Part shown: positions 7,861 through 54,400 of the stretch, one piece after another
Layout of the letters: every line of letters starts with the position of its first letter
How positions within the stretch are numbered: position 1 is the first letter of the stretch
Origin: Hormiphora californensis
Taxonomy: Eukaryota; Animalia; Ctenophora
Direction: 5' to 3'
Assembly: GCA_020137815.1 (NCBI GenBank)
Contig: CM035351.1
Coordinates: 6,634,001-6,698,000 of the forward strand
Length of the DNA: 64,000 nucleotides
Position numbers and translations under genes: made by a program
Notes under the pieces: generated by a model
Told to the model about the DNA's origin: nothing
What the model saw: the letters and a program-made list of their open reading frames with translations, nothing else
Database searches by the model: none

Positions 7861-8114
7861 ATCACACCGAGATCTTCGAAGCAATTTCTTCGAAGAACCG
7901 ATCACAATCACACCGGGTTGGTTGGGTTGGTGCTTGCATGCGTATGACTATGTCTACACTCTACAATTTGTTCGTGTGTCATCCGCGCTCAGCTGTTCTC
8001 TCTAATTTCTAAAGTGTGTCATACGCGTGCAAGCACCAACTCAACCAACCCGGTGTGATTGTGATCCGTGCTTCGAAGAAATTGCTTCGAAGATCTCGGT
8101 GTGATCACGCCCTG
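7861..8114. mobile_element. Foldback MITE of the CAGGGCG(C/T)GATCACACC family, left end truncated
   Basis: Inverted arms of about 90 bp (ATCACACCGAGATCTTCGAAGCAATTTCTTCGAAG... and its reverse complement ending GTGATCACGCCCTG). Termini are shared with 28682-29128. It lies about 150 bp upstream of the LRR-LDLa start codon. Confidence 0.7.
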
Positions 8115-13772: not shown

Positions 13773-14614
13773 TGCGGGGTCACTTATATGTGCCCCCTGA
13801 TTAATTATGGGCATAAATATGTTTTCGGGAATATATATATCATGATTTACATTCATGGCCACACACTTCATCCATTAGTCGTAATGGATATTAATTGGTT
13901 CCATGCACTGGTGCACGGATATAGGACTTCATCATCATATGTGGGGATATGTCCCACAGTAGTATTGTTGTATGATGTGACTAGGTAATCGTGTTTTAAG
14001 TACCGGCCCTAGCTTTCTAGAGGAGTTCATATCTTTCAAGAGGAGTTCCTGAATTACCAGAATTATGGGGATGCTCGTGCTGAAGTTCCTGAGATGGTTG
14101 TCTGTACAAATTGACTCTACAACCTTAGAGGATAGTTGGAGAGATTTGCCAGTTCCCTGTTCCTGCGTCAGAGATCACTGCCGTATGATTAAAACCAAAT
14201 TACAAGAAGAGGTTGGTGGCTGGCGGTGTATCATGTCAGGGGACTTAGTGGTACCAATTATCTGAGTACTAATACTGGACTGCACGAGGAGGAATCGCCC
14301 TCACTTCTTTGGAGCTTGCTTTGTGAACTCACTTCTTTCGGATCTCGCTTTGTGGATTCACTTCTCCTATTTGGACTTTTAGATCTCTAGTGAGCTGTTT
14401 TGTGTACTGCTTCGGTACTTATTTATTTACCCCACATTATATTTCTTGTCGTATTAGTTAATTAAAATATACTAAAAACCACACTTGCATATTTCATTAT
14501 TCGCTCACAGTCACCTCAATATACCCGTGTGAGCAGTACAACGCAATGTCCGATCTAGCCAACCCGGTGCTCAGTCCAACGGTGAAAGGGGGATCCCAAC
14601 AGGGGGGTCTTACA
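13773..14614 (+). repeat. 5' LTR (842 bp)
   Basis: Direct repeat of 17490-18330, TGCGGGGTC...TCTTACA. Confidence 0.95.
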
Positions 14615-17489: not shown

Positions 17490-18330
17490 TGCGGGGTCAC
17501 TTATATGTGCCCCCTGATTAATTATGGGCATAAATATGTTTTCGGGAATATATATATCATGATTTACATTCATGGCCACACACTTCATCCATTAGTCGTA
17601 ATGGATATTAATTGGTTCCATGCACTGGTGCACGGATATAGGACTTCATCATCATATGTGGGGATATGTCCCACAGTAGTATTGTTGTATGATGTGACTA
17701 GGTAATCGTGTTTTAAGTACCGGCCCTAGCTTTCTAGAGGAGTTCATATCTTTCAAGAGGAGTTCCTGAATTACCAGAATTATGGGGATGCTCGTGCTGA
17801 AGATCCTGAGATGGTTGTCTGTACAAATTGACTCTACAACCTTAGAGGATAGTTGGAGAGATTTGCCAGTTCCCTGTTCCTGCGTCAGAGATCACTGCCG
17901 TATGATTAAAACCAAATTACAAGAAGAGGTTGGTGGCTGGCGGTGTATCATGTCAGGGGACTTAGTGGTACCAATTATCTGAGTACTAATACTGGACTGC
18001 ACGAGGAGAATCGCCCTCACTTCTTTGGAGCTTGCTTTGTGAACTCACTTCTTTCGGATCTCACTTTGTGGATTCACTTCTCCTATTTGGACTTTTAGAT
18101 CTCTAGTGAGCTGTTTTGTGTACGGCTTCGGTACTTATTTATTTACCCCACATTATATTTCTTGTCGTATTAGTTAATTAAAATATACTAAAAACCACAC
18201 TTGCATATTTCATTATTCGCTCACAGTCACCTCAATATACCCGTGTGAGCAGTACAACGCAATGTCCGATCTAGCCAACCCGGTGCTCAGTCCAACGGTG
18301 AAAGGGGGATCCCAGCAGGGGGGTCTTACA
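17490..18330 (+). repeat. 3' LTR (841 bp)
   Basis: Direct repeat of 13773-14614. Confidence 0.95.
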
Positions 18331-19110
18331 ACAGAACAGAACAGAACAGAGAACAGAGAACAGAGAACAGAGAACAGAGAACAGAGAACAGAGAACAGAG
18401 AACAGAGAACAGAGAACAGAGAACAGAGAACAGAGAACAGAGAACAGAGAACAGAGAACAGAGAACAGAGAACAGAGAACAGAGAACAGAGAACAGAGAA
18501 CAGAGAACAAAGAACAGAGAACAGAGAACAGAGAACAGAGAACAGAGAACAGAGAACAGGACAAAAAAGCCGGAGACACAACAGAAAACAGAACAGAACA
18601 GGACATGGCGCGCTTTGTTGAGTAGTTGAATTATACGTAACGCGCGAGATAGGTTTTGTAATGCGGCATTCTGGTGCCGCGGCGCGCGATTTATCATGTT
18701 TCTGATCTTAAAAACAAACTTTCAAACATTTGTTTTTTTAAGTTTTGATTTCTAATTTTTTCAGTTTTGCGTTATCATCCCACAGTACCGAGGTGTTTGT
18801 AGCATATGGCGATTAAATTAATTAAGCCCTAACCAAAAAAGCCCTGGAAACTTAGGGGGTGAAGTAATAATTGCGTGAAATTTTACATAACCGGAGTGGA
18901 GGGCCTTTTTAGTTAGGGTTTTACTTTAGGTTTTCTGTTTTCCACTTTGGAAGTTAGAACCAAAAATATGGCTCGCTTTGGAGCTTAAGCCAAATAAAGT
19001 TTTATACCTTTTATTTTTACAGGCTCAATTCTCAAATGACCCCTCTTTTTTAGGATAAAACAAAATGTGACTCAGAGGATGACTGTCGAGAGGGTTGACG
19101 GGGGCCTAGG

Positions 19111-25171
<6,061 letters not shown>

Positions 25172-27099: not shown

Positions 27100-30000
27100 C
27101 AGTTCTCTGCTTCACTTCCTTCCTCTTCGTCTTCCTCATCTTCAGAGAATTCTGCCCCACCCTGAACAACCCGCATTCCTGGAGAGAGGAGGAGGATTAT
27201 AGAGACAGAGAGAAAAGGGAGGAGGAAGATTGTCATGGGATGCTGATAAGTGTATGATAATTTAGTCTTGATTGACTGTAGATGCAGTCAGCTAGAAATG
27301 GTACAGTATATATAGTACATAACGTTCTGCACGCAGTGCAAGCGCGCCATATACGCTCTGCACTGCAGAGCGTATATGGAGGTGAAATGCACGACAGCGG
27401 AGCTGGAGTGCATTTCACATCTATATTGCACGAGTGAAACGAGTGCGATATAGGACCGCTTGCACATGCCGTGCAGGACGTTATTGAGTATATATTCCGC
27501 GAGAAAACACATGACAAGCAAAACAATCATAATTTTGGGTGATTACACACAGAGAGATGTGACAAAACAAGGTACAAACTAAGCAAAACTAGACAAAATA
27601 CACTTCTACACCGGTTACACACAAGGGAGAGAAGGTCTGATAGTTTGAAACAGTGAAAAGAAGAGAGAGATAAAGAGAGAGATGCGAGAGAGGGAGATTG
27701 GAATTCTTGGAAATAGCAAACAACAAAACGTGTAAGGGGATAATTAGTGAGAGAAAGAGGGAGAGTGAGTGTAAAATGGCAGACTGTGTGTCGTGTAGTA
27801 CCTTGTCAGTCATATTCTGTGTGTTTGTGTGTGAATAAGGTGTAAAAACACATTTCTCACTTATATCCCGCTACCTCTATATCTGCACGCTCCCGCGGAA
27901 GCACAGTGCATATTTCAGCGTGCAAATGGTCGCGCACAGCGGGAGTGATATGTGCACTCGCGGTATATATATGCCATATAAATAAAGGCCCAATAAAAGG
28001 CCTGTCAGAGCATTTTCCTGACAGTAAAAGGCCGAGAAGTAGTTGAACAGACGCCAGATGGTCACGTATAATAGACTACTAGGCCAGAAGACAATATCAA
28101 CTTCCACTGGAAGTTCCAGAGTGAGAAAGGTGTGGTCGTGAATGGTTTTGAAGAAAGAGTCAGTGAGGGCGCCAGGTGTATGGCCACTGATATTGGCCAC
28201 ACTCGATCTGAGATAGAGTTAACATAGGGCCTGAAAACCTGACTGACTATTATTCAAAAATTGTTTGATCTACCGAGCCCTCACAGAGCGGGCTATTATA
28301 TAAATTGCAGTGTGAGCCAAGACAAAAAGTTTTGTGTGATTGGGTTCATTCAGGTTTTCACTCTTTCTTCAGAATAGAAAAAACAATATCCAGTGAACAC
28401 TAGCTAAATGGCTATAAAAACTATACTAGCTAAATGGCTATAAAAACTTACTGGGGGATTCGACATAGAAGTCGGGCGTTGATCTCTCACTAGCGCAACC
28501 AGAAGCAGGGGTACATCGTGGTTCTCTACTCTCCCCGTCCGGTAACCACAGCACTGATACCCCCCACTTCCTGTGAATGGGTGAGTCCACCTTTCGAGCC
28601 TGAAATAAAAAGGAGTTACGTCATGTTGTGGTACAAAGAATTTCAAGGAATGGTACAGGAAATCATGAACCAGATCCAACTGAGGGCGCGATCACACCAG
28701 GATCTTCGAAACAGTTGCTTTGAAGAACCAAGTTGAATCACACACAGATCTTTCCTTAAGTTGGTGCAAGTACGATCCTTATATGGAGCGAGCTCGCTCT
28801 CTCCAATCTTATCCCCTCTTTCGAGCTCTCTCTCCCACTCGCTCTTTCTCCCCATATAAGGGATAATTGCGCGGGAGAGAGTGAGTGCGAGAGAGAGCTC
28901 GAAAGAGGGGATAACATTGGAGAGAGCGAGCTCGCTCCATATAAGGGATAATTAAGCGCGAGAGAGAGTGAGTGCGAGAGAGAGCTCAAAAGAAGGGATA
29001 ACATTGGAGAGAGCGAGCTCGCTCCATATAAGGATCGTACTTGCACCAACTAAAGGAAAGATCTGTGTGTGATTCAACTTGGTTCTTCGAAGCAATTGTT
29101 TCGAAGATCCTGGTGTGATCGCGCCCTGAATAACTAAAATACTTCGAGTTGCTGGGTGAATGGATGTTTATAGTACCCACTGCCCACTGAATCCCACTCA
29201 CCCAGCTTAAGGGTACACCTGGCGTTTTTCATCATCGAGTGCCCAACCAAATGACTTCACCAGGGTTTAGGTCATACAAAATGGACCTCAAATATGCAAT
29301 TTTAGCCCTAAAGTCGAATTCATATTTTTGCTACAGCCTATTTTCAAAGTGGCGTTTTTTCAATTTTTGTTGGAATTTTTAACCTCAGGACCACCTTTTT
29401 TGAGATAGAAACATTAAATTCTTAGAATTTGAAGAGAATATAAAGGTGAATAAGCCCAAAGAAGGATTTTTGAAATGGAGCTTATTTCTGGCCATGAGAA
29501 CGGTTTACTTTTTTGCTTCTTTGACACGCTGGCTGAGAATGTTCCCATGCTTCATTAGAGATGAAAATCTGGAAATAGTTGCTCAAAACGATCATCTATG
29601 TGGCCCAAAAATTTTGGAACTTTCCCACCAAAGATGCGGTGTACAGAGCTTGTTTTGTGAAACCCGTCTTTTTGAAAAAGAGGGAAACTCCCTGTATCTC
29701 AAAAACGGATGGTCGTAGAGACCTGCGACCAAGCTTAATCGATTCAAAAGGTCCGATTTTGGGGGGGTCTTCTGAGAGACATTTGCTCCTACTCCAACCG
29801 TTTTTGCTGTAATTGCAAAAAACCAATTCTATGAAAAGGGGGAACAACTCTATTCCAGTAGCCTGCTTCGGGCTGATTTCCCCCTTACTTGCTGATACCT
29901 TTTTCACAATTACAGCGAAAACGGTTGGAGTAGGAGCAAAATGTCTCTCAGAAGACCCCCCCCCCCAAAATCGTACCTTCTGAATCGATTAAGCTTGGTC

Positions 30001-30566
30001 GCAGGGCTCTACGATCATCCGTTTTTGAGATACAGGGAATTTCCCTCTTTTTCAAAAAGACGGGTTTCACAAAACAAGCTCTGTACACCGCATCTTTGGT
30101 GGGAAAGTTCCAAAATTTTTGGGCCACATAGATGATCGTTCTGAGCAACTATTTCCAGATTTTCATCTCTAATGAAGCATGGGAACATTCTCAGCCAGCG
30201 TGTCGAAGAAGCAAAAAAGTAAACCGTTCTCATGGCCAGAAATAAGCTCCATTTCAAAAATCCTTCTTTGGGCTTATTCACCTTTATATTCTCTTCAAAT
30301 TCCAAGAATTTAATGTTTCTATATCAAAAAAAGTGGTCCTGAGGTTAAAAATTCCAACAAAAATTGAAAAAACGCCACTTTGAAAATAGGCTGTAGCAAA
30401 AATATGAATTCGACTTTAGGGCTAAAATTGCATATTTGAGGTCCATTTTGTATGACCTAAACCCTGGTGAAGTCATTTGGTTGGGCACTCGATGATGAAA
30501 AACGCCAGGTGTACCCTTAATGTTGTGTGATTGAATCTGCATATCAATTACCAATTCTTGTTCCAT
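27100..30566 (-). CDS. Putative small multi-exon gene of unknown function
   Basis: In-frame GT-AG splices give MEQEL (30552-30566) | LGEWDSVGSGYYKHPFTQQLE (29143-29205) | LDLVHDFLYHSLKFF... (28452-28679). Further candidate exons lie at about 27980-28207 and an acidic terminal exon at about 27100-27178, but downstream phases could not be reconciled. Confidence 0.35.
28682..29128. mobile_element. Foldback MITE of the CAGGGCGCGATCACACC family
   Basis: Inverted arms of about 130 bp or more, with an internal duplicated unit of about 85 bp. Termini match 7861-8114. No clean TSD. Confidence 0.75.
29211..30516. mobile_element. Kolobok-like foldback element, copy 2 (opposite orientation)
   Basis: TTAA TSDs 29207-29210 and 30517-30520. 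Highly similar to 22848-24150 with the central spacer reversed. Confidence 0.85.
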
Positions 30567-37670: not shown

Positions 37671-37708
37671 GAGGGATTAAATGATACCATTTTGAGAGTG
37701 TATCTCGT

Positions 37709-38083
37709 TGGTGTAAGGGGGTCAGTGATATATTCTGGGGCGTTACCGATGATTACCGATCCGAGAGACTAAGTAAACGCAGTGGTTTCGTGGTTTGAAG
37801 TAAAGAATGAAAAGTACCCAGAGTTTACAGAAAGGTTTCTCGTTGTTTCAGAAGTCACCAAATATACTCGTCTTCCCGAAAGGTCACAGATTCAGATTTT
37901 CACTTCAATCTCACCTCTCTCAGAGCGCGCGCACCACCATGCCAATGCATGATGGCGCGCGGCCTAAAAATGCTGTGCTTTCAACATATTCTAGCGCCCA
38001 AAAAGTCTGTTGCTAAGGTAACTACACACTTTTACACACGGGTACATATCTACGCCACTGAGGCTAAGAGCATAACTACACCA
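37709..38083 (-). repeat. 3' LTR relative to gag-pol (375 bp)
   Basis: Direct repeat of 50947-51322. Confidence 0.95.
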
Positions 38084-39349: not shown

Positions 39350-39850
39350 TGTCGAGAATACTCAACGTAAATTGGGGAAGTAAAGGGTAGATCTAACGAT
39401 CTTAACTTCCGGAACATGTGAAGTGTTTGGGTGATGTGAACTGTCGAGAGTGCTCAACATAAAATGGAGGTGTACAGGGTAGATCTGACGATCTTAACTT
39501 CCGGAACATGTGAAGTTTTTGGGTGATTGAATTGTCGAGAGTGCTCAACATTGGGTGGGAGAAATAAATATTTAAGTTCCGAAGAACTTTAACTTGGAGT
39601 GTCGAGAATACTCAACATTGGGTGGGAGAAATAAATATTTAAGTTCCGAAGAACTTTAACTTGGAGTGTCGAGAATACTCAACATAGCTGTTTTGAAAAG
39701 AAGTCCGTGGTCGTGAGTTGTCGAGAATGCTCAACATTGTATCGGTGAAATAAATGTTTAAGCCCCGAAGGACCTTAGCTGTTTGTCGAGAATTCTCAAC
39801 TTAAAATAGAAATATAAAGGATAGATCTAATGATCTTAACGTCAGGAACA
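39350..39850 (-). repeat. Array of seven 18-nt hairpin repeats with 34-74 nt structured spacers in the retroelement 3' UTR
   Basis: TGTCGAG-N4-CTCAAC(A) at 39350, 39442, 39533, 39600, 39667, 39719 and 39784. Confidence 0.85.
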
Positions 39851-40110
39851 AATCCGCAGGTGATCCTCAATGGGGAGTTGAATTAATCGGCAGTAGTTAG
39901 AGGTAGGAACAGGAATGGAGATGAAAACAGGCTATGGTAGCAAGTTATTCGCCGCTGGTTGACAGGCAGTACCAGGAGATTCAGAACGGTGTTACAGCTG
40001 TCAAGTTTTAGTTGGCTAATCAAGACAAATCCAGCTGGCCAGCAAATGTTATGAAGTAACATCAGATAGGGCTTGATCAAAGTCAACAAGGTCCAGCGGT
40101 TATAACAGAG

Positions 40111-41722
40111 CTACATAAAGCGTTTCACACCCGTTATGGTTGAGCGTAAACGTCCTCTCCATTCAGGCTCAAGTCTTTCCTCTCGGTCCACGGGGTCATC
40201 TTGCTGCTGAACTGGTATCTGTGACTCCTGTTCTTCGTTCTCAGAAGCCTGGTGTTCATCCTCTTGCTCGGACTCTCTCAGTTCAGGCTCGTCCATGTCG
40301 CTGAGTTGAACTAAACTTTGGTCTAGAGGTGAGTTATCGTGATTGCTCGGTTCTGGGTCTTGTTCTGGAGCGAGGGAAGTATTGTTGCGTCTGAACAGCT
40401 TCAGTTTGGAAACAGCAACGACCTTGTCTTTTCCATCGTGATGAATTCGGTACAGATAGGGACTGATAACCTCCTTGATTCGTAATGGACCGATGTATTT
40501 AGGAGAAAACTTGTGTTCTGGACACGGGATACGAATCATGACTTCGTCCCCTACCGATAACTCAGGGTCATTGAGCCTCTTGTCATGTTGTGTCTTGGCG
40601 TACCCGAAATCTCTGTTGGCGTTCTGACGGACTTTCCAGATCAATTTGTTCCTCTGTTGGGCCATCTCGTGCACCTTGGCGTGGATGTTTGCCCCTTGTG
40701 GGACTCGGGTTTTGGCAAGTTGTTTCATCCGGATGGTTTCTGGGATGTTGGCTTCAAACCCATGGACAAGTCGGAACGGTGTATATCCTGTTCTCCTGTT
40801 CTTTAAATTGTTGAGGACGAATACTGCATCGCTCAGAAACTCATCCCAGTCTTGCGGATACTCCATGAACAATATCTTACGTAGGATATCGTCAACTCGT
40901 TTATTACTGGATTCGGCTCGGCCGGTGCTGCGGGCTAGATAGGGTTGACCTGCGATAACCTTGGTTCCAGCATAAACTTCGAAGTACTCTTTGAACATTG
41001 CACCTTTGAAGCCTTGGTGTTGATCGCACACTATCTCACGTGGATATCCGAACCGATTTATCCAGTGTTTCTCAACCAGTTTTCGGTTCTCCAGACTTGT
41101 TTGTGTTACAGTAGGGACAGCGACGAGGTAATTACTGAAACTGTCTGTCATGGTTAGAATTGATGAGAATCCGTTTTTGGTTGCTCCTTTCTTCTCAGGT
41201 TCAATGTGATCAATCACCAACACAGCATTGAACTCGTGGCAAATAAATTTGCTCAACTCAGCCTGGTACTTCTTTCGTGGTTGATTTACCGCTGCACAAA
41301 CCAGACAAGCTTGCACCGAGGATTTGACGTCGGATTCCATTCTTGGCCAATAGAATAGCTGTCGCAAGCTGTTGAGGGTTGTCTGAATTCCTCCGTGGCC
41401 TGTTGTAACCTCGTGAGCTCTCGTTATTAGTTTGTCCCTGTATTGCCATGGTATTACAATTGGCCACACAACGTCCTCTGTTCTCAAGTCTTTCCATCTT
41501 CTTTGAAGGACGCCATCCTCTATTCTCAGCAATGAAAACTGTCTCCACAACGAATCCAGATCGGGTGGAGCTCTGTTGGCTTGTAAAACGCCTTTCGAAC
41601 CTTCTTTGACCCATGTTCTCACTATCTTCAGAATATCATCTGACTCTTGTGCCGCTTCCCACTCTGACCAGCTCTTTCCCGCGGGGTGATCAATCCCGAG
41701 GTTATGTATAGCTGCAACTTTC
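40111..41722 (-). CDS. Gypsy integrase (HHCC, DDE, GPY/F), separated from upstream pol by +1 frameshifts
   Basis: AQESDDILKIV, AHEVTTGHGG..CLVC, VIDHI, CDQHQGF, RAESSNK, PKYIGPLRI. No chromodomain. Confidence 0.92.
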
Positions 41723-42140
41723 CAGAATTTCTTCGGGAATCAACTCCTCCTCACAAATGCAAGGGTGGTTGTGGTCTTCAGTTGAGTCTGATGCTCCTCT
41801 GTTCAGACAGTCTGACTTCAGCAGACTAACAATATCTTCATCTGGATGCGCATCCTCAATTTTGTCTGAACTTTCCTCTATCTCTTCGCTGGAACGCAAT
41901 GAGATCTCTTCTCCATTCTCGATAGTAGCGAACTCTGTTACAAAGCTTGTCTCCGGATACTGAGTACTCTTTACTGCAAAGATGTACTCTACGGCTGTTG
42001 ACTCTTCACTTGACGAATGTGCTACATCTGACGTGCTGACAAGGGACATGCTGCTGTCTTTATCGTCCAGACCGCTAGAGCTGCGTTCTTCCTGGACAGA
42101 CGAAGATGTTTCCTGGTCCGTGTCACTGGAGTTTGTAGGG

Positions 42141-45100
42141 TCATATCCAATCTGCACCGGGTTGGTGCACATTTGTTATCGTTGGTTCCATTTCAGGTAC
42201 TGTAACTTCATTGACAACCTCGCTAGAGCTGCGACTTTGGTTATCTGTTAGTTCTGGAGCCTGGGTCGGTTCCTCTGACGGTTCTGTTTCTTGCTGCGTG
42301 ATTTCTCCTAATGCCACTGCAAACCAATGGATGCCGCCGTCATCAGAGTTGTTGACGATGAAAAACTTCCGTCCATCTTGGTTCTTGACGTGTTCAAGGG
42401 TCTTGAACCTGAAGGTTGTTAAACTGATGGCATCTTCGACGTTTGCATGGGATGATAAGCTGTTGACAGGGATGTCTGTTGAATGGTACTTCTTCAAATA
42501 TACCGATATCAACCGTAAACATTCTTCAGCGGTAAGGAAGGATGGTTCTTGATGCTGTTCACTAGGCTTTCTCAAAGCAGCGTTGCCTGCAGTGATCATG
42601 TCATCGTCTGGGTCTCCACTGTAGATACAATCATCAAACTGCATGTGTCTATCGAAGCAATCTGGAGTGGAGATCATTTTGGCTAAGACCTTCGCTGCGA
42701 TGTATCCACAACTAGGTCCTTCTTGTGTATTGCCGACTATGGTTCTTACATTGAATCCTTTCTCCTGCAGAAATCCCTGTAAGTCCTTTGACTCTTGGCA
42801 TGGTAGAAAGTCGACAATCACAGCGTTGTGTTTGATTTGTGCTTCTAGAAGATCTGATCTTATTGCCTGCACCTTTGGAGGATCTGGTTCTTTCATCTGC
42901 ACTTTTGGAAGATCTGGTACTCTCTTCTGCACCTCTGGAGGATCTGGTTCTCTCTGCTGCACCTTTTGAAGATCTGGTTCTCTGTGCTGCACCTTTTGAA
43001 GATCTGTCTCCACTGGTGTCTGGGTTTGAGCCTCACTGAAGATCGGTGGGGAGGGGAATCTTGAGAGCCAATCACAAACTTCGTTATCTACTCCACTCAC
43101 ATGGCGTAAGATAAAGTTGAACTCCGCAAGTTTCTGGATCTTGTTTAGTACAGCTGCGTCCGGATGTGTGAAGAGCGTTCCTTCTGCTTTAACTAGCGAT
43201 AAGCAGTCCGTGATGAGAACAAATTCCTTCGTGTTGTACAGGTATATCTTCCAATGTTCAAGCGCTGCACACATGGCTTCAAACTCAAGTCTTGTTTGAC
43301 CCCTAGGTTTCTTGTACTCTGGAACTGCCTTGCTGTAGTAGGCGACTATTCTTCGTTCTCGTCCTCCATCAGTAGTGTCAAGTTCTTGGGACAAAGACGC
43401 ACCCAGACCGTGGATCGATGCGTCAATCGTAACTTGATAGGAGTTGTAAGGGTCAGATGGATCCGGTATTGCCAGTTGAGTGGTTTTGGCAATTAGTCGT
43501 TTCAGTTCCTCATACGCCTCCTTGCATTTCTCAGTCCAGTGAAACTTCTTATCTTTACCTCCACGCAAGGCTGCGTGTATGGGTTTGCTAATGGCGCTGT
43601 AATTAGGTATCCACTTTCGCACATAATTCATAGCGCCCATCACTTGTTGGATTTCTTTTCTGGATCGGGGTTCTCGTAGAGCGAGGAGATCGGCTACTCT
43701 GCTTTCAGTGATCTGGATACCTCCTCCGCTGACTCGAACACCGACGAAGTCCACTGCTTGTCGTAGAAGTTGAGACTTATCTGGCGAAACCTTCAAATTT
43801 GCACTCTTCAGCCTAGATAAGAGCCTTTGTAGTCGGTCAAGATGATCTTTGACAGTCGATGATGACAGAAGTAGATCATCAACAAACTGGACTACTTGCT
43901 CTATCGGCAACGATCCAAGGAGCCTGGACATCATGTCACAAAATGACGGTCCACTTGATCGATGTCCCATCACAGTTTTGGCGTATGCATATTGGGTGTT
44001 TTTGTAGAGAAATGCTGTTATCTGCTTTGAAGCTTCATCATATGGTAACTGCCAATAGCCGCGTGACAAGTCGAAAGAGGAAAAGATTGTGTCCTTTCCA
44101 ATCTTGTCTAGTACGTGGTCTAGATGTGCCAGTGGGAAGTTGGATGGAAGAGAGACCTTGTTGACGTTCCTCAAATCCGCTACGATTCGATAACGTTGTG
44201 GCTGCCCAGGAGGAGTCTTCTTTTTGACGAGAAATGTCGGAGAGTTCCAGTCAGATCGCTCTGGCAGTACTTCGACTACTCCTGTACGTACCATCTCATC
44301 AATATTTCTCTGCATTTCGTCCTCCAGTTTATATGGACATGGGAACGGTGGTGTCCACTGCGGCTCTGCACCTTCTTTTAGCCTGATCTTAGCTGTGTAC
44401 ATTGTGCAGGAACCCAAATCGTAATCGTCATAGCTAAAGCAGTGTCGATGCTCCCACAAAATGTCTTTCAACTCGTGTGCTTGGAGATCGGTCAGGTTCC
44501 TAGTAGCAATATCCACACTCAGACGCTCAAAGAGCTCTTCTTTGGTCCATTTCTCTTTCTCAGATATTTCTGAGCCAATTGCGTATCGGTCTTCCCACTT
44601 AATTCCAGAATGAGGATCGTATTCCGGAACGGGACTGAATTTTGCAGCTCTACTCCCTTGCTTTAATTCGACTTCGTTTTCACTCATGTTGAGGATCTTC
44701 AAGACAACCTTCTCATCGCTTGCTTCACCGATAGCTTCTGCTACGTACACATCGTTGTGTCCTCTGGTTAGGTCAGGAGAGATGAGTCCAATAGATCCTG
44801 TCGGGGTTTCTGCTAAGGATCCTGCCACCAACATCATCGTATGTGGTGGTATACACGTCGTTTCCGACCATTTGATCTGGTGAACTCGTTTTGTGCTGGT
44901 TGGTCTGGGTTGAAATGGAACTGGCTCCGCTCCTTCTATCCTCAACTCTCCGTGGATATAGTCAATGACAACTTGTCCTTTGAAGAACGGATCTCCTAGC
45001 AACAGGTCTGTGTCCAGTCCATCGCAGACGGCGAATGAGTGCCATTTGGACAAACCTCCTATGTTCACTATCACCATGATAGTTCCTCTGCAAGGTATAG

Positions 45101-45689
45101 AGTTTCCTCCGAAATCACGAAGATTCTGCATGGTCTCGTTGACATTTGAAGTAAGTCCCATTTTACACACTGTGGTCCAGTTTATGAGATTGATCTGGGA
45201 ACCGGTGTCTAAGAAACAACGGACTCTGAAGGGTGCCACACTATAGTGTGTAATCTCTCCTTCGACAATCACTTGTTGAGCTCTCTTGACTTCATCCGCA
45301 GTGAGTGTCTTCACTTTCTTCTCACGCTTCTTATTCTGGGTGGCCTTTTTCTTCGGTGTCTCCTGTTTTATCTGTTTCTCAGTGCATGGAACAGTCTCCT
45401 TTGGCTTTGATGCTGGGTCGGTAAGCTTTACCGACTTATCTTCTGGAGCAGTAGTTGCCGGGTGAGTAGGATCTTCTTCTGCTGAGATTGGTTTCTCATG
45501 AATATCTGTTTTCTGTATCGTCTTTCCCTGGTTAGGAGAATCCCAGGGCTTCTGTGCCGGTGGGGTGGAGAGGTCGGCCACCCTTGCCTTTGTCTCCCCC
45601 TCACGCTCCCCCGGCGGCTTGATCTCTGAATCTACTTGCGGTCGAGGTCTCGAGTTTGCCTTCCTGCCCCGACCGCTTGGCCGTTTAAC
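42141..45689 (-). CDS. pol: Pol: aspartic protease, RT, RNase H, 10-aa repeats, inserted cysteine-protease-like domain
   Basis: FLDTGSQINLI, WNSPTFLVKK, YRIVADLRNVN, FDLSRGYWQ, QFVDDLLL, TIDASIHGLGA, LITDCLSL, NEVCDWLSR. The frame is open back to the slippery site at 45683-45689. Confidence 0.93.
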   Translation of the reverse strand, partial: VKRPSGRGRKANSRPRPQVDSEIKPPGEREGETKARVADLSTPPAQKPWDSPNQGKTIQKTDIHEKPISAEEDPTHPATTAPEDKSVKLTDPASKPKETVPCTEKQIKQETPKKKATQNKKREKKVKTLTADEVKRAQQVIVEGEITHYSVAPFRVRCFLDTGSQINLINWTTVCKMGLTSNVNETMQNLRDFGGNSIPCRGTIMVIVNIGGLSKWHSFAVCDGLDTDLLLGDPFFKGQVVIDYIHGELRIEGAEPVPFQPRPTSTKRVHQIKWSETTCIPPHTMMLVAGSLAETPTGSIGLISPDLTRGHNDVYVAEAIGEASDEKVVLKILNMSENEVELKQGSRAAKFSPVPEYDPHSGIKWEDRYAIGSEISEKEKWTKEELFERLSVDIATRNLTDLQAHELKDILWEHRHCFSYDDYDLGSCTMYTAKIRLKEGAEPQWTPPFPCPYKLEDEMQRNIDEMVRTGVVEVLPERSDWNSPTFLVKKKTPPGQPQRYRIVADLRNVNKVSLPSNFPLAHLDHVLDKIGKDTIFSSFDLSRGYWQLPYDEASKQITAFLYKNTQYAYAKTVMGHRSSGPSFCDMMSRLLGSLPIEQVVQFVDDLLLSSSTVKDHLDRLQRLLSRLKSANLKVSPDKSQLLRQAVDFVGVRVSGGGIQITESRVADLLALREPRSRKEIQQVMGAMNYVRKWIPNYSAISKPIHAALRGGKDKKFHWTEKCKEAYEELKRLIAKTTQLAIPDPSDPYNSYQVTIDASIHGLGASLSQELDTTDGGRERRIVAYYSKAVPEYKKPRGQTRLEFEAMCAALEHWKIYLYNTKEFVLITDCLSLVKAEGTLFTHPDAAVLNKIQKLAEFNFILRHVSGVDNEVCDWLSRFPSPPIFSEAQTQTPVETDLQKVQHREPDLQKVQQREPDPPEVQKRVPDLPKVQMKEPDPPKVQAIRSDLLEAQIKHNAVIVDFLPCQESKDLQGFLQEKGFNVRTIVGNTQEGPSCGYIAAKVLAKMISTPDCFDRHMQFDDCIYSGDPDDDMITAGNAALRKPSEQHQEPSFLTAEECLRLISVYLKKYHSTDIPVNSLSSHANVEDAISLTTFRFKTLEHVKNQDGRKFFIVNNSDDGGIHWFAVALGEITQQETEPSEEPTQAPELTDNQSRSSSEVVNEVTVPEMEPTITNVHQPGADWI

Positions 45690-47215
45690 TGATTCTCTTG
45701 TGGTACATGGTTACTGTTGGGTTTGGGACACAATCTTCTGATGTGACCTGGTTCGTTGCAGTTCCAGCAGATAATCTCTGTCTTATCTTTTTGTTGCTGT
45801 CTGCCTCTGGTGGTGTTAGAACTTGCTCCATTGCGTGCTTGATACTTTCGCTCGACCCTGAACTTCCTACATCGGGGTCCAGTGTGTCCTTCTTCGTTGC
45901 ATAGTTGACAGATTTGCTTTTTGAAGCAATCATTGACCTCGTGACCTCTCTTGCCGCAGAATGTACAGTCTGGAATTTCACTCGTTCCTGCACTGTATGG
46001 TGTGGGTTTAGGCATAGTGGTGGGGCTGCTCGTTGCTGTTCCAATAGCGTAGACGTTGAGAGAATTGTCTGTCTTCTTCTCAGTCGTGAAGATTTTGTTT
46101 TTCACAAGCTTCTTATATGCCGCTGCTGCAATGCTCTCGAAATCGATCTTGGGGGTATCGTCACGCCACTTGGATATGGTCTTGGCAACCCTTCTATCGT
46201 ATAATCCGTCCTGAAGCGCATCTAACATCCTGTTGTTCATTAGTTCTAGTTTCAACCGAGGATCTGCTTCGGCATAAGCTTCTTCTGCAAGGTCACGTAT
46301 TCTCTCGAGGAAATCCGCGTATTCCTCGAACTCTCCCTGACGAATGTTAGTCAGCTCCACCCTACATGCCTCTGGTGCAGGCCTCTCGGTCTGGGTAGCA
46401 AGCCTGACGTATTCGATCAGTTTGTCAAGATCTTTTTTCTCTTCCTCAGAGAAGTGAAGTCGTTCGATTTGCCTGAACTTTTCATCACATAATATACACT
46501 CAAGGAGGAGCTTATCGAGGTTCTTTCTTTTTTCCTTGGATCTGATCACATAGTTCTTGAATCGTCTGAGGAAAATGTCAAACTTTTTCTTTCCTCCTTC
46601 AAACTTCGGCGGCCTGGGCTTGTGGCTTTTCTTCGAACGCCGCGGAGCTTTACCGGCAACTCTAGTGCTCTCACTCCCACTTGATAATGATTCACTGCTA
46701 GAGTCCTCTGAAGATTCACGCTTTGGATCACGAGGTTTTGGTCTTCTTACTTTTTCCTTGCTACGGCTAGGGTGGGCTATCATGCTTGCGTCGGATTTTG
46801 TCACTCTCCGAGATTCTGGTTTGACTGACCGTTCACTTTGTGGTGCTGTGCGGAGCGAAGGCTCACTCTGTTGTTGTACCCATTTCTCAAGCCTGTCTCT
46901 GTCAAGTTTCCTTTCCCGCTCTCTTAGAGCCTCTTCGATTTCTGCCGTTAAGCTCCTGTTACTCATTGTTGTGGATGCTTCAGATCTTGGAGGGATGGGC
47001 ATGGGAATGTTTCTTTCAAACTGGGGTCCTGTTGCTCCTGGAAAGGTGTCATTCGCAGGATTTGGCCGTACTGGTCGAACAGAAGTTTTGGAAGGGACCC
47101 TCATAAGCCGGTGTTCTGGTACTTCTCTGCTTGGCAAGGCCGGTTCTGAAATACTTGATCGAATAGGTAACACAGAAGTATTAGAGAGTACCCGTACCAG
47201 TTGCGGTTCTTCCAT
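45632..47215 (-). CDS. gag: Gag with three CCHC zinc knuckles (true start probably further upstream)
   Basis: PPKFEG, IRQGEFEEYADFLERIRDLA, CTFCGKRGHEVNDC, CQLCNEEGHTGPRC, CWNCNEPGHIRRLC. Confidence 0.9.
   Translation of the reverse strand: MEEPQLVRVLSNTSVLPIRSSISEPALPSREVPEHRLMRVPSKTSVRPVRPNPANDTFPGATGPQFERNIPMPIPPRSEASTTMSNRSLTAEIEEALRERERKLDRDRLEKWVQQQSEPSLRTAPQSERSVKPESRRVTKSDASMIAHPSRSKEKVRRPKPRDPKRESSEDSSSESLSSGSESTRVAGKAPRRSKKSHKPRPPKFEGGKKKFDIFLRRFKNYVIRSKEKRKNLDKLLLECILCDEKFRQIERLHFSEEEKKDLDKLIEYVRLATQTERPAPEACRVELTNIRQGEFEEYADFLERIRDLAEEAYAEADPRLKLELMNNRMLDALQDGLYDRRVAKTISKWRDDTPKIDFESIAAAAYKKLVKNKIFTTEKKTDNSLNVYAIGTATSSPTTMPKPTPYSAGTSEIPDCTFCGKRGHEVNDCFKKQICQLCNEEGHTGPRCRKFRVERKYQARNGASSNTTRGRQQQKDKTEIICWNCNEPGHIRRLCPKPNSNHVPQENQLNGQAVGAGRQTRDLDRK
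45638..45689 (-). promoter_or_regulatory. -1 ribosomal frameshift signal (gag to pol)
   Basis: G TTA AAC in gag frame, 6-nt spacer, 10-bp stem GCGGTCGGGG/CCTCGACCGC. pol is in the -1 frame. Confidence 0.8.
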
Positions 47216-49113
47216 TTCCTCAGGTGTTATAGCTGGTTGTACAAGGTTTGTTCTAAAAGGCTGGACCGCAGCTCTATAGGAAAAACTTCGCTCCAGTTGG
47301 GGTTCCGTTATACTACTACTAGAAGATTGAGAAGCGTCAGTCTGTATAGGTCGAAGGTGTTTTTTCCCGGGTTGGTATTTATGTTTTTTCTTTTTGCCAA
47401 CCCGTTTGCCCTTTTTTTTTTGAATGAAGTATTGCCTTTTTTTTAAGTTTTGAGAAAAACGACTTTAAAGTTTTTTTGAGGGTTTTCGGAAAAAATTTTC
47501 ATGAAGCCCAAATAACGTCAAAGATTTTTACTTTTCCACAAAAAATCCCGAAGGAATTTCCCGGACTTCCAAATTTTCACATCATCAAATTTGTCTCAAA
47601 TTTATGCGGCATCAAAATTGATGCCTATCTGTGGTTACTTCACTTTTTTAAAATTTTTTGGGAAAAAACTTCCCTCTAGAATGATTCGACTGAAGCAAAT
47701 TTTTTGTGGTAGATACTTTAATAATACTTACTCAAAAAAAACTTTATCATAATAGCAAAAAAAGCACCCAAAAAGTACTTTTCCCATTACTTCAGTAAAT
47801 TTCTTCATTTCCCAAAAAATATTTTTCAGAAATGTATTTAAAAAGCCTAAAAAAAACTTAATCGAACAAAAAATTTTCAGTGCTTCAAAATCGCAATCTT
47901 ACTTCAAAATTTTGGTAAAATAAAAAACAAGTTAATTTTTTTTAACACGCAGTGGGAAGGATAAAAGTGTTAGAATTCTTTCTAGCTTTAAAGAACTCCC
48001 GAGCACACGCAGACAAAAAGACGACAGACAAACAACGCACAAATTACAACTGCAGCAGCTGCACAGCTGCAAACAGCATAAAGAGGGGGCCGCCCGCCCT
48101 TCGGGCGGAATGTTAAAAACATGGTGTGATAAATGAGCGAAAACGAAAAACGCTATGGCAACCCTCAAACTAAGACGAACCTGCAGATAAAAACTGGAAG
48201 ATTATTGTTCCGGTACAGTCAACTTTTAAATTGGTTTAGTTTGGGTTGTTTTTATCAGAGGAAAAATGGAGATTGGGGATTTAAGAATTTTTTTTCCGAC
48301 CTCTCACAGGTCGTGTTTAAAAAATGACAGACACAAAAACCCGATCACAGGGAAAACAAACAATCACAGACAGACACACAGACAGAACACAGGCCATTCA
48401 ACATGTTTTAAAAACCCCTTGGCGAAACCAGTCACGTGACCCGAATAAAGAGCCGGATTGGTTGTTATTTGGCCCCGGGCGGTTGCTGAAGGGGAGAAAG
48501 GGTTTAAGAGAATAATATCGATGAGAGGGAACGGGAGTGAATTGTCTCCCCTTGGGTTATTTACGAAGAGGGTTTTGTTAAAAGGGGGGAAGAAGGAAGA
48601 AAAGAGGGAAAAATTTTTTTTAAATTTGGAGGACCCTTTCAATTTTTACAAACATTTCAAATTTTAAAATTGAAAAAAGAAAAAGCAGTGGGGGGCCCAA
48701 AAGGGAAGGGGTACAAGGGAGGCAAAAGTGACAGGGGGTTTAAAAATTTGGGGAAAAAGGTGAAAGGGGGAAAAAGGATATAAGGTGCGGCCCTCACTCA
48801 CCCCCCTTCCCAGGTCATTGTTAAAAATTCCCCCGGTCCCTCCCGCCCCCTAACTCACCCCCCCCCCCAGGGGCATCCTGCCCCCAAATCACCCCCCTTT
48901 CCCCCGGGCATCCGACCCCTAAAATAAACCCCTTCCCCAGGTCATCCTGCCTCCTAAAAAAAAGGCAGCGAAAAAAAAACCCCCCCAGGGGGTTTCCTGA
49001 TAACTCCCCCCTAGGGGAAATTTTCCTCCAACTCACCCCCTTCCCCAGGTCATCCTGCCTCCTAACTCACCCCCTTCCCCAGGTCACAAAAAACGGGCGG
49101 GAAATCAGCAGCT

Positions 49114-49186
<73 letters not shown>

Positions 49187-49295
49187 CTCTCCTTCTTGTT
49201 TCTCTCTCCTTCTTGTTTCTCTCGATCTTTCTCCCTAGTCCCTGGCAGGTTCAGCAAAAACATTATATAGGGGGTTAGATTGCAAATATTCACAA

Positions 49296-49370
49296 GCGGA
49301 GATGGTGTAATGGTTAGGGCATTGTCGTATAAGCCTCTGAGGTTCCGGGTTCGAGTCCCCGGTATTTGTA
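49296..49370 (+). pseudogene. tRNA-derived sequence (A and B boxes intact, anticodon arm broken) inside the Gypsy 5' leader
   Basis: GCGGAGATGGTGTAATGGTTAG...CCGGGTTCGAGTCCCCGG followed by T runs. Confidence 0.6.
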
Positions 49371-50946
49371 AAGTATTTTTGACTCTGTCACTTTTAACTC
49401 TATTTTTTCTCTATCTTTTTATCAAATTTGTCTCACTCTTTCTCTTACTTTTTACTCTTTCTTTATCGATATCTCTATAGCATGACAGACCATGACAGAC
49501 CATGACAGACCATGACAGACCATAGTCATAGTCATAGTCATAGTCATAGTCATAGTCAATTAACCCTCGTGGCTCCGAAGTTTCATCAAAAACAGGGTAA
49601 CGTGCTTTTAAATCACGTCCTGATAACAATAATTATTATCATAATAAAAACGGTTTATTGTAATTGCAATAGGAGAGACAAAACGAAACGGGTATACATT
49701 CAATGTACATGGTGGCTAACTAAGCAGCAGCTGCGTGTGGTGGGAGAAATGGCTTACCCTATATTTTTTACTATTTTACAACAAATGTCTGAGAGTGACA
49801 GAAACATTGTACCGCTGCAGCATGATACGATACACACGGATGTCCGTTAGCTACTATTTGAACTCCAGACAGGTTGAGTTTTCAAACCAGCTGCAGCTGG
49901 CCCCCTAGCCTTTCGGAATGATGTAAATTTGAAACCAAACGCTAGGGCAATAACTTATAAAACCTTATGAGGTCAGTGTTTGACAACACTGTTTGTGGTG
50001 TCTCTCTCTCTTTGTCTCAGAGTGACACTCTTACATAGAGATAATCCCAGAATCATGATCACCCCGGCCCCCAGACATCTCTTCTCCACTTGTTGAGTTA
50101 CCTAACAACTGGTTGTGTTGTGTCGTTACGACAGTACGGTACTGGAACATAATGCTACCTTTGAATGTGGGGTTCTAAGTTCGAAGAATGAGATTGGAGT
50201 GACGTAGTTGTGACGGTGAGGATGAGTAATTCGAGATGTGAACGATAATTATAATTACTCAGAATAGAATAATTATTATAGGGATCGCCTCCGTTCGACC
50301 TTCATCATGATGATGCTGCAGCAAAGAACAAATCTTGGAAATTACTTCATTTGGCCGGACTTGTGTTATAAATGGCACATATTATAATAAAAAATGAAGT
50401 ATTCTTAAGTTATGAAGTATTTTTTCTGGATGCGACAAGAAGCATTTGAATTCCACAGATTTATGAAGCATTTTCAAATTGAAGTAAATGAAGTGAAGTA
50501 TCTTCTGATTTGAAAATACTTCAAACAAAATCTGCAACTGATTTATGAAGCATTTTCAAATTGAAGTAAATGAAGTGAAGTATCTTCTGAGTGGACAATA
50601 CTTCAAACAAAATCTGCAGCTGATTGAAGTATTTCAATAGAATTTTTTAAATGAAGCAAACAACTGAAGCAAATTTTTCTGCGGTTATTACTTCTATGGT
50701 AGAAAAGTTTAACGAAGCAGTATTTATTTCCGAATTATATTAGCGAAGCAATTGCCATTTGCTTCACTTTTCTGCAGTTTTTCAAAAATAAAAGTACTTC
50801 ACAAAAAACACTTCACTCTATTTTTTGAAGATTGAGACACGAGACTTAGCCCATCTTGTAGATCTTTTTCTCCTGATCAAGATGGTATAAATAACTCAAA
50901 ATCGCCAAAATTGCAAATACTTCATTCTAAAAAAAAGGGGCAGAGT

Positions 50947-51322
50947 TGGTGTAAGGGGGTCAGTGATATATTCTGGGGCGTTACCGATGATTACCGATCC
51001 GAGAGACTAAGTAAACGCAGTGGTTTCGTGGTTTGAAGTAAAGAATGAAAAGTACCCAGAGTTTACAGAAAAGGTTTCTCGTTGTTTCAGAAGTCACCAA
51101 ATATACTCGTCTTCCCGAAAGGTCACAGATTCAGATTTTCACTTCAATCTCACCTCTCTCAGAGCGCGCGCACCACCATGCCAATGCATGATGGCGCGCG
51201 GCCTAAAAATGCTGTGCTTTCAACATATTCTAGCGCCCAAAAAGTCTGTTGCTAAGGTAACTACACACTTTTACACACGGGTACATATCTACGCCACTGA
51301 GGCTAAGAGCATAACTACACCA
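50947..51322 (-). repeat. 5' LTR relative to gag-pol (376 bp)
   Basis: Direct repeat of 37709-38083. Confidence 0.95.
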
Positions 51323-51462
51323 TCGTGTCAAAAACCAAGAAGCTGCATGTTCCGGCAGTTTTATGTCGAGAATTGGTTCAGAGAGAGATGTTTATTGTTT
51401 TAGCGACCACAGAACATTGAGATTTTGTAGAACTGCAGATTTTGTTAACTTAATTGGAGCAT

Positions 51463-54400
51463 CTAATTTATACAGACTTTTATTAAAACCCGAGTTTTTA
51501 TGTGATCTTTCCATCGGAATATCTTAATTGCTGGGCTTGGTTTGAAAACTGAGGCATCTGGAATCAATGTACCGCATTTGGGGCATTTGGGGCGAGATAC
51601 TGGCTGGTGAGAGTGAAGTGTGAACCTACTACCAAGTGAAATTGACTGGACACCACCATATTGCCACAAAATCCCGGCCTGTACCTGTTCATTGAATGGG
51701 TTATCCACTATTCCATCGTGTAGATACATCCATAGGGGGGTGAAGAGTATAAAATCAAATATGGAAATCTGAAAATAGAGGGTTTTGGTCAAGCTTTTGG
51801 TCAAATGAATAAATCTTCATCGACCATAAAGCTTTTGAAAACATATTAGTCAACTTGAACTAGGGCCTATTATAGGAATGAGTTTTACCTCTCCGGTTTT
51901 CTTGGGATCCAGTTCCGCTATTAACCTCAGTCTGGTGTCCTCGGGAACTGAGGCAGCCCGTAGCTCAATATCCATGGCCTGGGTGGTGAGACGAGGCCAA
52001 CCAAACTCATCACTCTCCGATACACAGTGGAATAATCTCTGTGGATGGGGTTTTAAGGGGGTTTTAGAGGGGGTTAGGGCTGAAGGGGTTTGAAGGAGTT
52101 TAGAGGGGGTGTTTGCGAAAGATACAGCTATATCATTCGGAGAAAAATGGGGGAGAGGAGATTTTAGGTAATGCATACCTTAAGTCGAGGCAAATCATGC
52201 TCCAGTCGTGAGAGATCAACATTATCAAACATTTCCATCGTCTCGGGACTGTGTGAGAAATAAATGTTGAGAAAAAGGAAAACACAAGTATGAAAATTGT
52301 GCAAAAACAAGAATTATTGCATTATGTATTCATAATGCTGTGTTTCCCTGCCCTACCGTTTCACATGTCAGTGACATTGGGTAAGCGGTAAATACTCACT
52401 CGGTTCTTCACATTTTTTGGACGTTTTTGGCCATAACTCAGTCATTTCTTGTCCAATTTGCTAAATCTTGGGCTCATTGGAAAGAAGACATTAAGACCTT
52501 TAAAATGAGCCCTAGAAAATGAAAATCGGCGCAAAATGCGCGGCGCTATGGCGTAAAATGCGCGTTTTCGCCATAGCGCCGCGCATTTTGCGCCGATTTT
52601 CATTTTCTAGGGCTCATTGGAAAGCTTTTAATGTCTTCTTTCCAATGAGCCCAAGATTTAGCAAATTGGTCAAGAAATGGCTGAGTTATGGCCAAAAACG
52701 TCCAAAAAATGTGAAGAACCGAGTGAGTATTTACCGCTTACCGTGACATTGTCACTGCCAACAGGATCAAGGCTTGGTCATAATGTAATGTGAGATGCAT
52801 ACGATCTAGCTGTCAGTATACTTCTCACATAGCTTAGAGTTAGCTAACTCCCAATCACATGACACTTGCTAACCAGCTTTTGACATTCCAACTTAACTAC
52901 TTATCTAACATCTCACACTCGACTCGCAAGATGAAAATGTGTATGTAACACGCGAAACACGCGGCAGAGCATTTCATGTTTTGTTGAGTGGCGCGCGCAC
53001 ACACGTCCATCAAACTGTGTCAATGAGGTGTTTCATGAAGGAGTAGCTCGTCACTGTGCGCGCGGCTCTAGTTGCTACACCGTTGCCCTCGCAACGAAAG
53101 TGTGACCAAACAAGAATTATTGCATTATGTATTCATAATGCTGTGTTTCCCTGCCCTACCGTTTCACATGTCAGTGACATTGTCACTGCCAACAGGATCA
53201 AGGCTTGGTCATAATGTAATGTGAGATGCATACGATCTAGCTGTCAGTATACTTCTCACATAGCTTAGAGTTAGCTAACTCCCAATCACATGACACTTGC
53301 TAACCAGCTTTTGATATTCCAACTTAACTACTTATCTAACATCTCACACTCGACTCGCAAGATGAAAATGTGTATGTAACACACGAAAAGCGCGGCAGAG
53401 CATTTCATGTTTTGTTGAGTGGCGCGCGCACACACGTCCATCAAACTGTGTCAATGAGGTGTTTGATGAAGGAGTAGCTCGTCACTGTGCGCACGGCTCT
53501 AGTTGCTACACCGTTGCCCTCGCAACGAAAGTGTGACCAAAAATGTCCCTCTACCGATTAGTTGGTGACGCGGTCCCCCCTCCACTAGGGCCGCGCGAAG
53601 CGCGGCAAACGAAGCCCGCGAACATAATAGGGGATGTCATCACCAAACCGATTAGTTAGTATACCAAAATGTCGTTTTCGAATTCTAACCCTGCTATGCC
53701 TTTTTACAAAGTAAAAAGGCATCCGGGTGAATGCCTTCGGCATTCACCCGGGCAGGGAAAAAATATTATCTACTTACTAACTTAGTAAGTAGAGAAAATA
53801 CATGGGTAGTACTTACTCTCGGTGCACCATGTGATCAATAAGCGTTGCCATGACAGCGAAAGTGTGGAAAGATATCTTGTTCTTGTTCAGCCCCAGGACC
53901 ACCTCAATAAATTTCATCTGAGCTCGGGATATTTTGGTACACGATTTCAACTGAGATAGGGCTCTCTTCATCTCTGGTTTTGTCAGGAACGGGTACTCGT
54001 TATTTGAGATGTACCCACTGAATATCTTGTAGAGATAATTTTGACGAGTTTTGTCGATAATTGCAAACTTCTCCAAGATCTCCTCCAGACCTTCTAATGC
54101 TGCAGGAGTATAATAGTGGTTTTAGGGTGACATTAAAAAACATTTCTAGGAATATTCCTATCCTTGAGTCGCCTGACACTGTGTCCACGCTGCGAATTTT
54201 AGAATAAAAAGAAATTATGAACAATTCAATCCTATCCTATCACCCTACCCTATAAAAATTACCGCTGTGAGGGGAGTGTTCCCCGTTTTCAGAAGCCTCC
54301 AGGAGGGCTTGTTCCTCTGCTTGCCGAGCTGTTTCCATTGCTTGTTCACGGGACCGCAGCTTCGCCCTAGGTTCAAAGAAACATTTGTTATGAAGTGGGT

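Follow-up and report, generated by a model that had tools for sequence, protein, structure and literature searches.

Which kind of protein does a Ty3/Gypsy retrotransposon of the ctenophore Hormiphora californensis carry next to its RNase H, where did it come from and what could it do for the element? The question arises from a stretch of 64,000 nucleotides (assembly GCA_020137815.1, contig CM035351.1, positions 6,634,001 to 6,698,000 of the forward strand), hereafter called the window, to whose first letter all coordinates refer. Here, the pol open reading frame (ORF) of the element continues past reverse transcriptase (RT) and RNase H into an inserted segment of 182 amino acids (aa), which a sequence-only reading had taken for a circularly permuted cysteine protease of clan CE. 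On balance, we favor a transposon-borne, permuted Ulp1-type (clan CE) protease, likely captured from a Helitron, that would cut ubiquitin or ubiquitin-like proteins after Gly-Gly. The segment and its key residues are the following:

42297..42842, minus strand: inserted 182-aa domain, a predicted papain-fold cysteine protease with the order Asp-Gln-Cys ... Asn-His-Trp
42810..42812, minus strand: Asp11, which closes the first strand and is the predicted third member of the catalytic triad, placed on the catalytic Asp of C48 proteases in the alignment
42723..42725, minus strand: Gln40, predicted oxyanion-hole residue, conserved in 15 of 16 rows
42708..42710, minus strand: Cys45, predicted nucleophile and first residue of helix 45-58, conserved in 16 of 16 rows
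42351..42353, minus strand: Asn164, last residue of the strand that leads into the His loop, aligned with the 'PVN' Asn of C48 proteases
42324..42329, minus strand: His172-Trp173, a His predicted to act as general base and a Trp as aromatic gatekeeper, conserved in 14 of 15 and 15 of 15 rows

The motif blocks and the five residues on which the sequence-only reading was built indeed lie on the minus strand in frame with Pol, in the order D-Q-C-helix-HW. A phmmer search of 1.84 billion representative sequences returned 19 matches at E ≤ 0.001, two of which (P0040, P0043) are low-complexity repeats and were dropped. The insert was aligned with the remaining 17 homologues, and conservation was counted over the rows covering each column. 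In addition to the counts given above, Asp11 (14/14), Ser44 (16/16) and Asn164 (15/15) are invariant. The family starts about five residues ahead of the Asp strand and ends at most 18 residues past the Trp in 10 of 14 homologues, with no conserved acid downstream. Known families gave no lead by sequence: the insert matched no Pfam family, the 18 family members gave only three unrelated weak Pfam matches, the insert retrieved only Pin1 noise from the PDB (E ≥ 0.15), and the family profile a single unrelated PDB entry (E 0.92). A word-indexed homologue search with the insert found none among longer proteins and with the profile only P0037, while scans of metagenome and viral contigs for related loci yielded no usable locus.

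In contigs from host sequencing runs, the insert is present in several copy types with no indel among the differences listed, and contig depth over it is similar to that over RT. Third codon positions account for 24 of the 38 differences listed inside the insert (binomial p = 1.6e-4 for an expectation of one third); this tally of codon positions, which is not a dN/dS (nonsynonymous to synonymous rate) estimate, comes from 40 of 55 differences, two of them outside the insert. None of the differences listed falls on the six key codons; the divergent contigs span the Cys region, whereas the Asp and His regions are not clearly spanned. Taken together, the insert is a genuine conserved domain, beyond chance.

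AlphaFold, supplied with the 18-row alignment, returned a confident model (predicted local distance difference test, pLDDT, 93.2; predicted template modeling score, pTM, 0.91), while a single-sequence run of pLDDT 39.8 was not used. The model begins with strand 4-11, helix 16-27 and strand 30-36, followed by helix 45-58, which starts at the Cys; helices extend up to residue 154, and strands 159-164 and 173-181 close the domain, with the His placed before the last strand. Foldseek, which had been suggested together with AlphaFold as a structural check, found no collinear match at E ≤ 0.001 in the PDB or BFVD. VIA-align over 48,161 chains gave one row at Z ≥ 5, the Legionella OTU protein Lem27 (LotC, 7BU0; Z 6.4, root-mean-square deviation (rmsd) 3.9, 124 residues aligned, identity 10%, model 4-180 on chain 10-312), followed by the M48 tegument deubiquitinase (Z 4.8, model 31-182), cathepsin L, apo Lem27 and OTUD2 (Z 4.5). 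All of the top five rows are papain-fold proteases; Rossmann-like folds are mixed in below, and a Wolbachia OTU is likewise among the rows listed. Neighbors in the ESM Atlas (0.79-0.90) comprise C39, IpaJ, Josephin and VTD clusters and serve as leads only, with a template modeling (TM) score of 0.32 in the structure search. From fold-search enrichment and the residues in combination, no single score being decisive, the insert is very probably a papain-fold cysteine enzyme. The earlier assignment as a cysteine protease therefore stands as a prediction, carried by conservation, a model of pLDDT 93 and the five papain-fold rows.

Is this enzyme a permuted member of clan CE? The catalytic order that defines clan CE is His-Asp/Asn-Gln-Cys (PMC7396840), whereas the order here is Asp-Gln-Cys-His in every full-length row of the alignment. 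When the family was compared by hhalign with an alignment of C48 proteases, two matches were obtained in swapped order, query 158-178 on C48 75-98 (E 0.007) and query 28-47 on C48 129-149 (E 0.15). Semi-global profile alignment placed residues 5-58 nearly gapless on C48 106-164, with the Asp and the Cys each matched to its C48 counterpart, and residues 99-178 on C48 25-98, ending on the His-Trp; the middle (residues 59-98) has no alignment to C48. The clan CE motif blocks are thus in register, with D, C and H aligned and the halves swapped, and the distance from Asp to Cys amounts to 34 in all 14 family rows vs 35 in 10 of 15 C48 rows. Shuffle-normalized z scores against C48 amount to 5.8 for the N-terminal and 4.8 for the C-terminal half (sum 10.6), values that none of 26 natural profile windows reaches (maxima 2.4 and 4.65, sum 4.3). 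In raw scores, the halves are less clearly set apart, while the His block taken by itself is distinct (z 4.2). A C39 profile, made from 6 of 17 rows after 11 without Cys-Gly and His-aromatic were dropped, scored z 2.5 and 1.3 (sum 3.7), which is within or near the natural background. Independently, VIA-align placed model residues 2-93 on SseL 233-340 (88 aligned), which, given the numbering offset we infer, is the portion after the SseL His strand; an ungapped start would place D11 on the third catalytic residue of SseL. The short tails leave no room for an acid strand after the His, as would fit a chain opened where the His strand once led into the Asp strand.

Several observations weigh against a derivation from clan CE. 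The C48 reference consists of 15 rows, all bacterial and mostly close relatives, with neither an adenain nor a eukaryotic SENP among them. In absolute terms, every comparison with clan CE is weak, the hhalign probability being below 10%; when raw scores are used, the C48 matches of the two halves are equaled by one and three, respectively, of 26 natural windows, and one natural window attains z 4.65 for the C-terminal half. The conserved Gln lies five residues before the Cys, vs six for the first Gln in C48 rows. On the structural side, the best match is a collinear OTU (Lem27), the SseL match has a Z of only 2.8 at rank 30, and no SENP, Ulp1 or adenain appears in the best 50 VIA-align rows, which does not exclude them, since sequential aligners cover only half of a permutant and a full match to the SENP/Ulp1 core is not expected from them. 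Likewise, none of the 18 members matches Pfam Peptidase_C48 at E ≤ 10, and a permuted domain would lose score there. With these points included, derivation of the domain from clan CE by circular permutation is supported, not proven, and we consider it probable. In its favor, the halves match C48 in swapped order and part of the model overlaps SseL. The sequence-only reading overlooked, however, that Asp...Cys...His threading has precedents in A20/Lot OTUs, among them the best collinear match.

These OTUs provide the first alternative, namely that the domain is a divergent, unpermuted A20/Lot-type OTU deubiquitinase with a helix-strand insert and a gained Gln, its CE-like motifs being convergent. 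Apart from the leading VIA-align row, in whose company OTUD2 and the Wolbachia OTU are found, this would be consistent with the acid before the Cys and the His-aromatic pair on the last strand, as A20-type triads run D...C...H and LotC D17 precedes C24 (bioRxiv 2023.01.02.522462, PMC7396840). An ungapped start would set D11 on LotC D17, and OTU domains are common in Helitrons (PMC11417382). Still, the Z of 6.4 for Lem27 is below the 7-8 that is this tool's typical best score for models without a clear match, at an identity of 10% and an rmsd of 3.9. The acid-to-Cys spacing is 7-8 in Lot enzymes vs 34 here and 35 in C48, and the Q-x3-S-C-G and N-x5-G-x-H-W motifs agree with C48. Canonical OTUs have Asp, Asn or Glu two residues after the His, whereas an aromatic residue, Phe or Tyr, occupies this position in all 14 rows listed. 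None of the 18 members matches Pfam OTU. On these comparisons, which cover Pfam, motifs, spacing and structure, we regard an unpermuted OTU as unlikely. Two further candidates were rejected: canonical clan CA enzymes (C39/Josephin-like) place their third residue on the strand after the His strand, where the family has no conserved acid, and VTDs carry Asp-x-His (PMC9741609), where this domain has Gly-x-His-Trp.

Returning to a permuted clan CE protease, the chain is predicted to have been opened within the hairpin that once linked the His and the Asp strand. The former C-terminal half would now come first (Asp strand, helix, strand, Gln, Cys helix) and the former N-terminal half last ('FL' helix, Asn strand, His-Trp strand), with the old termini joined by about 40 residues. 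In the active site, His172 would activate Cys45 and Asp11 would orient His172, while Gln40 would form the oxyanion hole. Because no conserved acid follows the Trp and the tails are short, the region downstream of it cannot supply the third catalytic residue. Trp173 would restrict P2 to Gly: an aromatic gatekeeper after the His marks proteases that cleave after Gly-Gly (PMC7391069), and from the invariant Trp at this position (15/15) Gly-Gly cleavage is predicted. As a predicted activity, that of an isopeptidase for ubiquitin or a ubiquitin-like protein is quite likely; ubiquitin, SUMO and NEDD8 are all candidate targets. The domain would be made as part of Pol, in a long flexible linker, and either travel with RT and integrase or be freed by the aspartic protease. 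It may shield proteins of the element from ubiquitin-driven decay or undo SUMO-dependent silencing; in Drosophila, SUMOylation is needed for piRNA (PIWI-interacting RNA)-guided silencing through Panoramix (bioRxiv 2021.07.27.453956).

A papain-fold enzyme could also have another job, either as a general or self-processing peptidase that cuts the polyprotein, as the sequence-only reading had suggested in second place, or as an acyltransferase resembling YopJ or LegCE. The domain does sit inside a polyprotein linker here, and in two homologues it follows what we take to be a 2A-like peptide. The ESM Atlas leads (C39, IpaJ, Josephin and VTD clusters) would be compatible with such roles, and it weighs against an isopeptidase that some clan CE members with His-Trp are acetyltransferases (PMC7391069). 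On the other side, a role in Pol processing is unlikely because the domain occurs mostly in elements without Gag-Pol and the aspartic protease is kept, and 12 of 12 closest Pols do without the domain. The C39 profile stays within or near background, and the invariant Trp after the His suits Gly-Gly substrates. A different job is thus improbable.

How is the domain embedded in its host element? The features are listed from the 5' to the 3' end of the element:

50947..51322, minus strand: likely 5' long terminal repeat (LTR), 376 bp, TG...CA, 7-bp inverted ends
45632..47464, minus strand: gag ORF, delimited from stop to stop and containing CCHC knuckles, PF00098 E 8.5e-7
42141..45710, minus strand: pol ORF part one with aspartic protease, RT, RNase H, repeats and the inserted protease domain
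42844..43006, minus strand: 30-nt (10-aa) tandem repeats preceding the domain, repeat family D3
41702..42296, minus strand: acidic low-complexity linker with two frame breaks in this copy
40111..41739, minus strand: integrase ORF (H2C2, rve, SH3-like), Integrase_H2C2 E 9.9e-16
37709..38083, minus strand: likely 3' LTR, 375 bp, TG...CA

With gag followed by protease, RT, RNase H and integrase between LTRs and a target-site duplication, the layout is that of a Ty3/Gypsy element whose pol frame is broken twice. Pfam detects RVT_1 (E 9.7e-21) and RT_RNaseH_2 (E 1.4e-18) in the pol ORF; gag-asp_proteas (E 3e-4) fails the family cut-off. The LTRs differ by one indel and are flanked on the outside by the 4-bp direct repeat TCGT (37705-37708, 51323-51326). 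No primer-binding site was recognized for the LTR pair and no tRNA gene was found in the window; as the former is lacking, we infer that the repeats, which enclose gag-pol, are probably the LTRs of this element. The repeats announced ahead of the insert are present, with five complete 10-aa units visible in the translation after RNase H. That the insert lies in Pol between RNase H and integrase holds on one side: it shares the 1189-aa ORF with RT and RNase H, but the way to integrase is interrupted in this copy by a stop at 42141-42143 and a second break near 41700-41742. At the first break, contigs of other copies from the host sequencing runs differ from the window.

Further observations concern the same element. 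On the plus strand, the right LTR is preceded by a purine-rich tract, which leaves some doubt about the orientation of the LTRs. About 3.5 kb of other repeats (47400-50946) separate the likely 5' LTR from gag and are bounded by 48-nt arms (47407-47454 and 50895-50942) that are 77% complementary, with very high contig depth on the gag side; this is probably a second element inserted in the leader, and it may have removed the primer-binding site. The 3' untranslated part contains 67-92-nt tandem repeats of copy-variable number (39350-39870). In this Gypsy clade, protease and RT are separated by a region resembling dUTPase (about 44500-44950 in the window); PF00692 matches the relatives P0004 and P0006 (E 1e-3 and 9e-5) and was not detected in the Pol of the window.

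Outside the element, two related near-perfect palindromes of 1.3 kb (22841-24157 and 29195-30533; self-complementary at 94-96%, mutually 94-97% alike) are probably foldback elements or miniature inverted-repeat transposable element (MITE)-like elements, and smaller palindromes lie at 52366-52760, 7861-8105 and 28683-29127. An 843-bp direct repeat of 99.4% identity (13773-14615 and 17490-18331, 3.7 kb apart) is possibly the LTR pair of another young element.

From where did the Gypsy lineage obtain the domain? It is lacking in all 12 closest Pols, the best of which is 71% identical over RNase H, and no other Gypsy Pol is among the 17 homologues. The sequence-only reading had supposed that a short linker is normal at this position, which does not hold in this clade: the RNase H-integrase linker of nine relatives out of 10 measures 122-247 aa (the tenth was not measurable by the motif used), and it comprises about 473 codons in this element. 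Since the linkers of the relatives are long and variable, and also acidic, this region appears insertion-tolerant. Helitron RepHel proteins carry homologues at their C-terminus (P0026 and P0029 by Pfam), and P0028, P0034 and the P0030 cluster were assigned to Helitrons by their helicase tails. In P0033 and P0041, the domain follows what is presumably the C-terminus of a non-LTR RT, judged by its motif. It is also found in the large transposase-like proteins P0032, P0039 and P0044, while six homologues are fragments or lack context. The nearest homologue is a Helitron domain of Pleurobrachia bachei (47% identity), a species from which two of the Pol relatives also originate. In a tree of 15 of 18 rows, from which three rows below 150 aa were left out, both domains pair with support 99/97; this tree is unrooted and has long branches, which were flagged. 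No fewer than three or four element classes that are unrelated to each other have captured the domain, one of them with a Gypsy Pol, and capture from a Helitron by the Gypsy lineage, a direction we deduce from these data, is likely and the simplest reading. That the domain is a mere passenger, copied from Helitron RNA via template switching and of no role for this retrotransposon, is very unlikely: although the closest Pols function without it and this frame-broken copy carries it in a long, insertion-tolerant linker, every predicted catalytic residue is kept at only 47% identity to the nearest Helitron domain, and the other copies show no listed indel, the excess of third-position differences (24/38) and RT-like contig depth described above.

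The domain-bearing elements show some additional features. P0032, P0039 and P0044, which are Pfam-blank and blank in PDB sequence search, carry the domain near the N-terminus, share about 1300 aa at 36% identity and have conserved D, D, H and E motifs; we take them to resemble RAG1/Transib-like DDE transposases. P0038 and P0044 contain, 5-10 residues ahead of the domain, D-V-E-x-N-P-G-P, presumably a 2A-like motif; owing to ribosome skipping at such a motif the domain would begin a separate protein. What we assume to be a 2A-like motif is also present near the N-terminus of P0026. Three domain-bearing elements (P0051, P0056, P0032) also encode 2OG-Fe(II) oxygenase (AlkB-like) and GDSL-like domains, and from this co-occurrence accessory modules seem to be traded among them.

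The transposon-borne papain-fold family is apparently not yet described. In the full texts searched, among which few subscription journals and no Repbase Reports are represented, we found neither a permuted clan CE family in transposons nor such a protease in an LTR-retrotransposon Pol; supplementary domain tables of PMC11417382 and PMC10318531 may bear on the matter. Term searches of PMC5408684, PMC5718144, PMC6338049, PMC10175614 and PMC4961225 gave nothing on the domain. As Pfam, sequence search of the PDB and Foldseek all fail to detect the domain, such domains are missed in transposon annotation. Its repeated capture supports removal of ubiquitin or SUMO as a general counter-defense of mobile elements, an idea that becomes testable in an early-branching animal lineage, and a small, well-folded domain (pLDDT 93) is easy to express and assay. 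A bolder proposal can be made tentatively: the domain would represent an undescribed permuted CE family with A20/Lot-like threading that bridges CE and CA, an active deSUMOylase or deubiquitinase module in Helitrons, non-LTR elements, DDE transposons and a ctenophore Gypsy element, the latter having the first LTR-retrotransposon Pol armed in this way against host silencing that relies on ubiquitin or SUMO.

Among known systems, C48 proteases (Ulp1/SENP, SENP8/NEDP1 and the bacterial NopD/XopD, ElaD and SseL) share with the domain the acid strand, helix, strand, Gln and Cys-Gly helix, the L-x-x-x-E/Q helix, the Asn strand and the G-x-H-W strand, at an Asp-to-Cys distance of 35 vs 34. Unlike in C48, the Cys precedes the His, the Gln is one residue nearer to the Cys, the old termini are connected by some 40 additional residues, and the N-terminal variable region 1 is not in its usual place before the helix. 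With A20/Cezanne OTUs and the Legionella Lot deubiquitinases (LotC/Lem27, LotB/Ceg23) it shares the sequence acid...Cys...His-aromatic and the His strand as last strand; Asp...Cys...His is known from A20-family OTUs, viral PLP2 and Legionella Ceg23/LotC (PMC7396840, bioRxiv 2023.01.02.522462). In contrast to Lot enzymes, a helix and a strand separate acid and Cys, a conserved Gln precedes the Cys and no extended helical lobe is present. Proteases of the ubiquitin system also ride on transposons, namely Ulp1 in Ginger1 and Mutator, OTU, VTD, UCH and C48 in Helitrons and a Josephin-like domain in Dualen (PMC2836005, PMC9741609, PMC11417382, PMC8557442, PMC6431247). Like these, the domain is an accessory papain-fold protease on a transposition protein, swapped among element classes; unlike it, they are canonical and Pfam-detectable, and in these sources none is placed in an LTR-retrotransposon Pol. 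Many papain-fold permutations have been published (PMC10318531), and a relationship through circular permutation is assumed for clans CA and CE of MEROPS, with few natural intermediates known, EschOTU being one (PMC7396840). Like EschOTU, the domain would be a natural circular permutant that blurs the boundary between CA and CE; whereas EschOTU is an OTU with the His before the Cys, the domain described here looks like the converse, a CE-like sequence with the Cys before the His.

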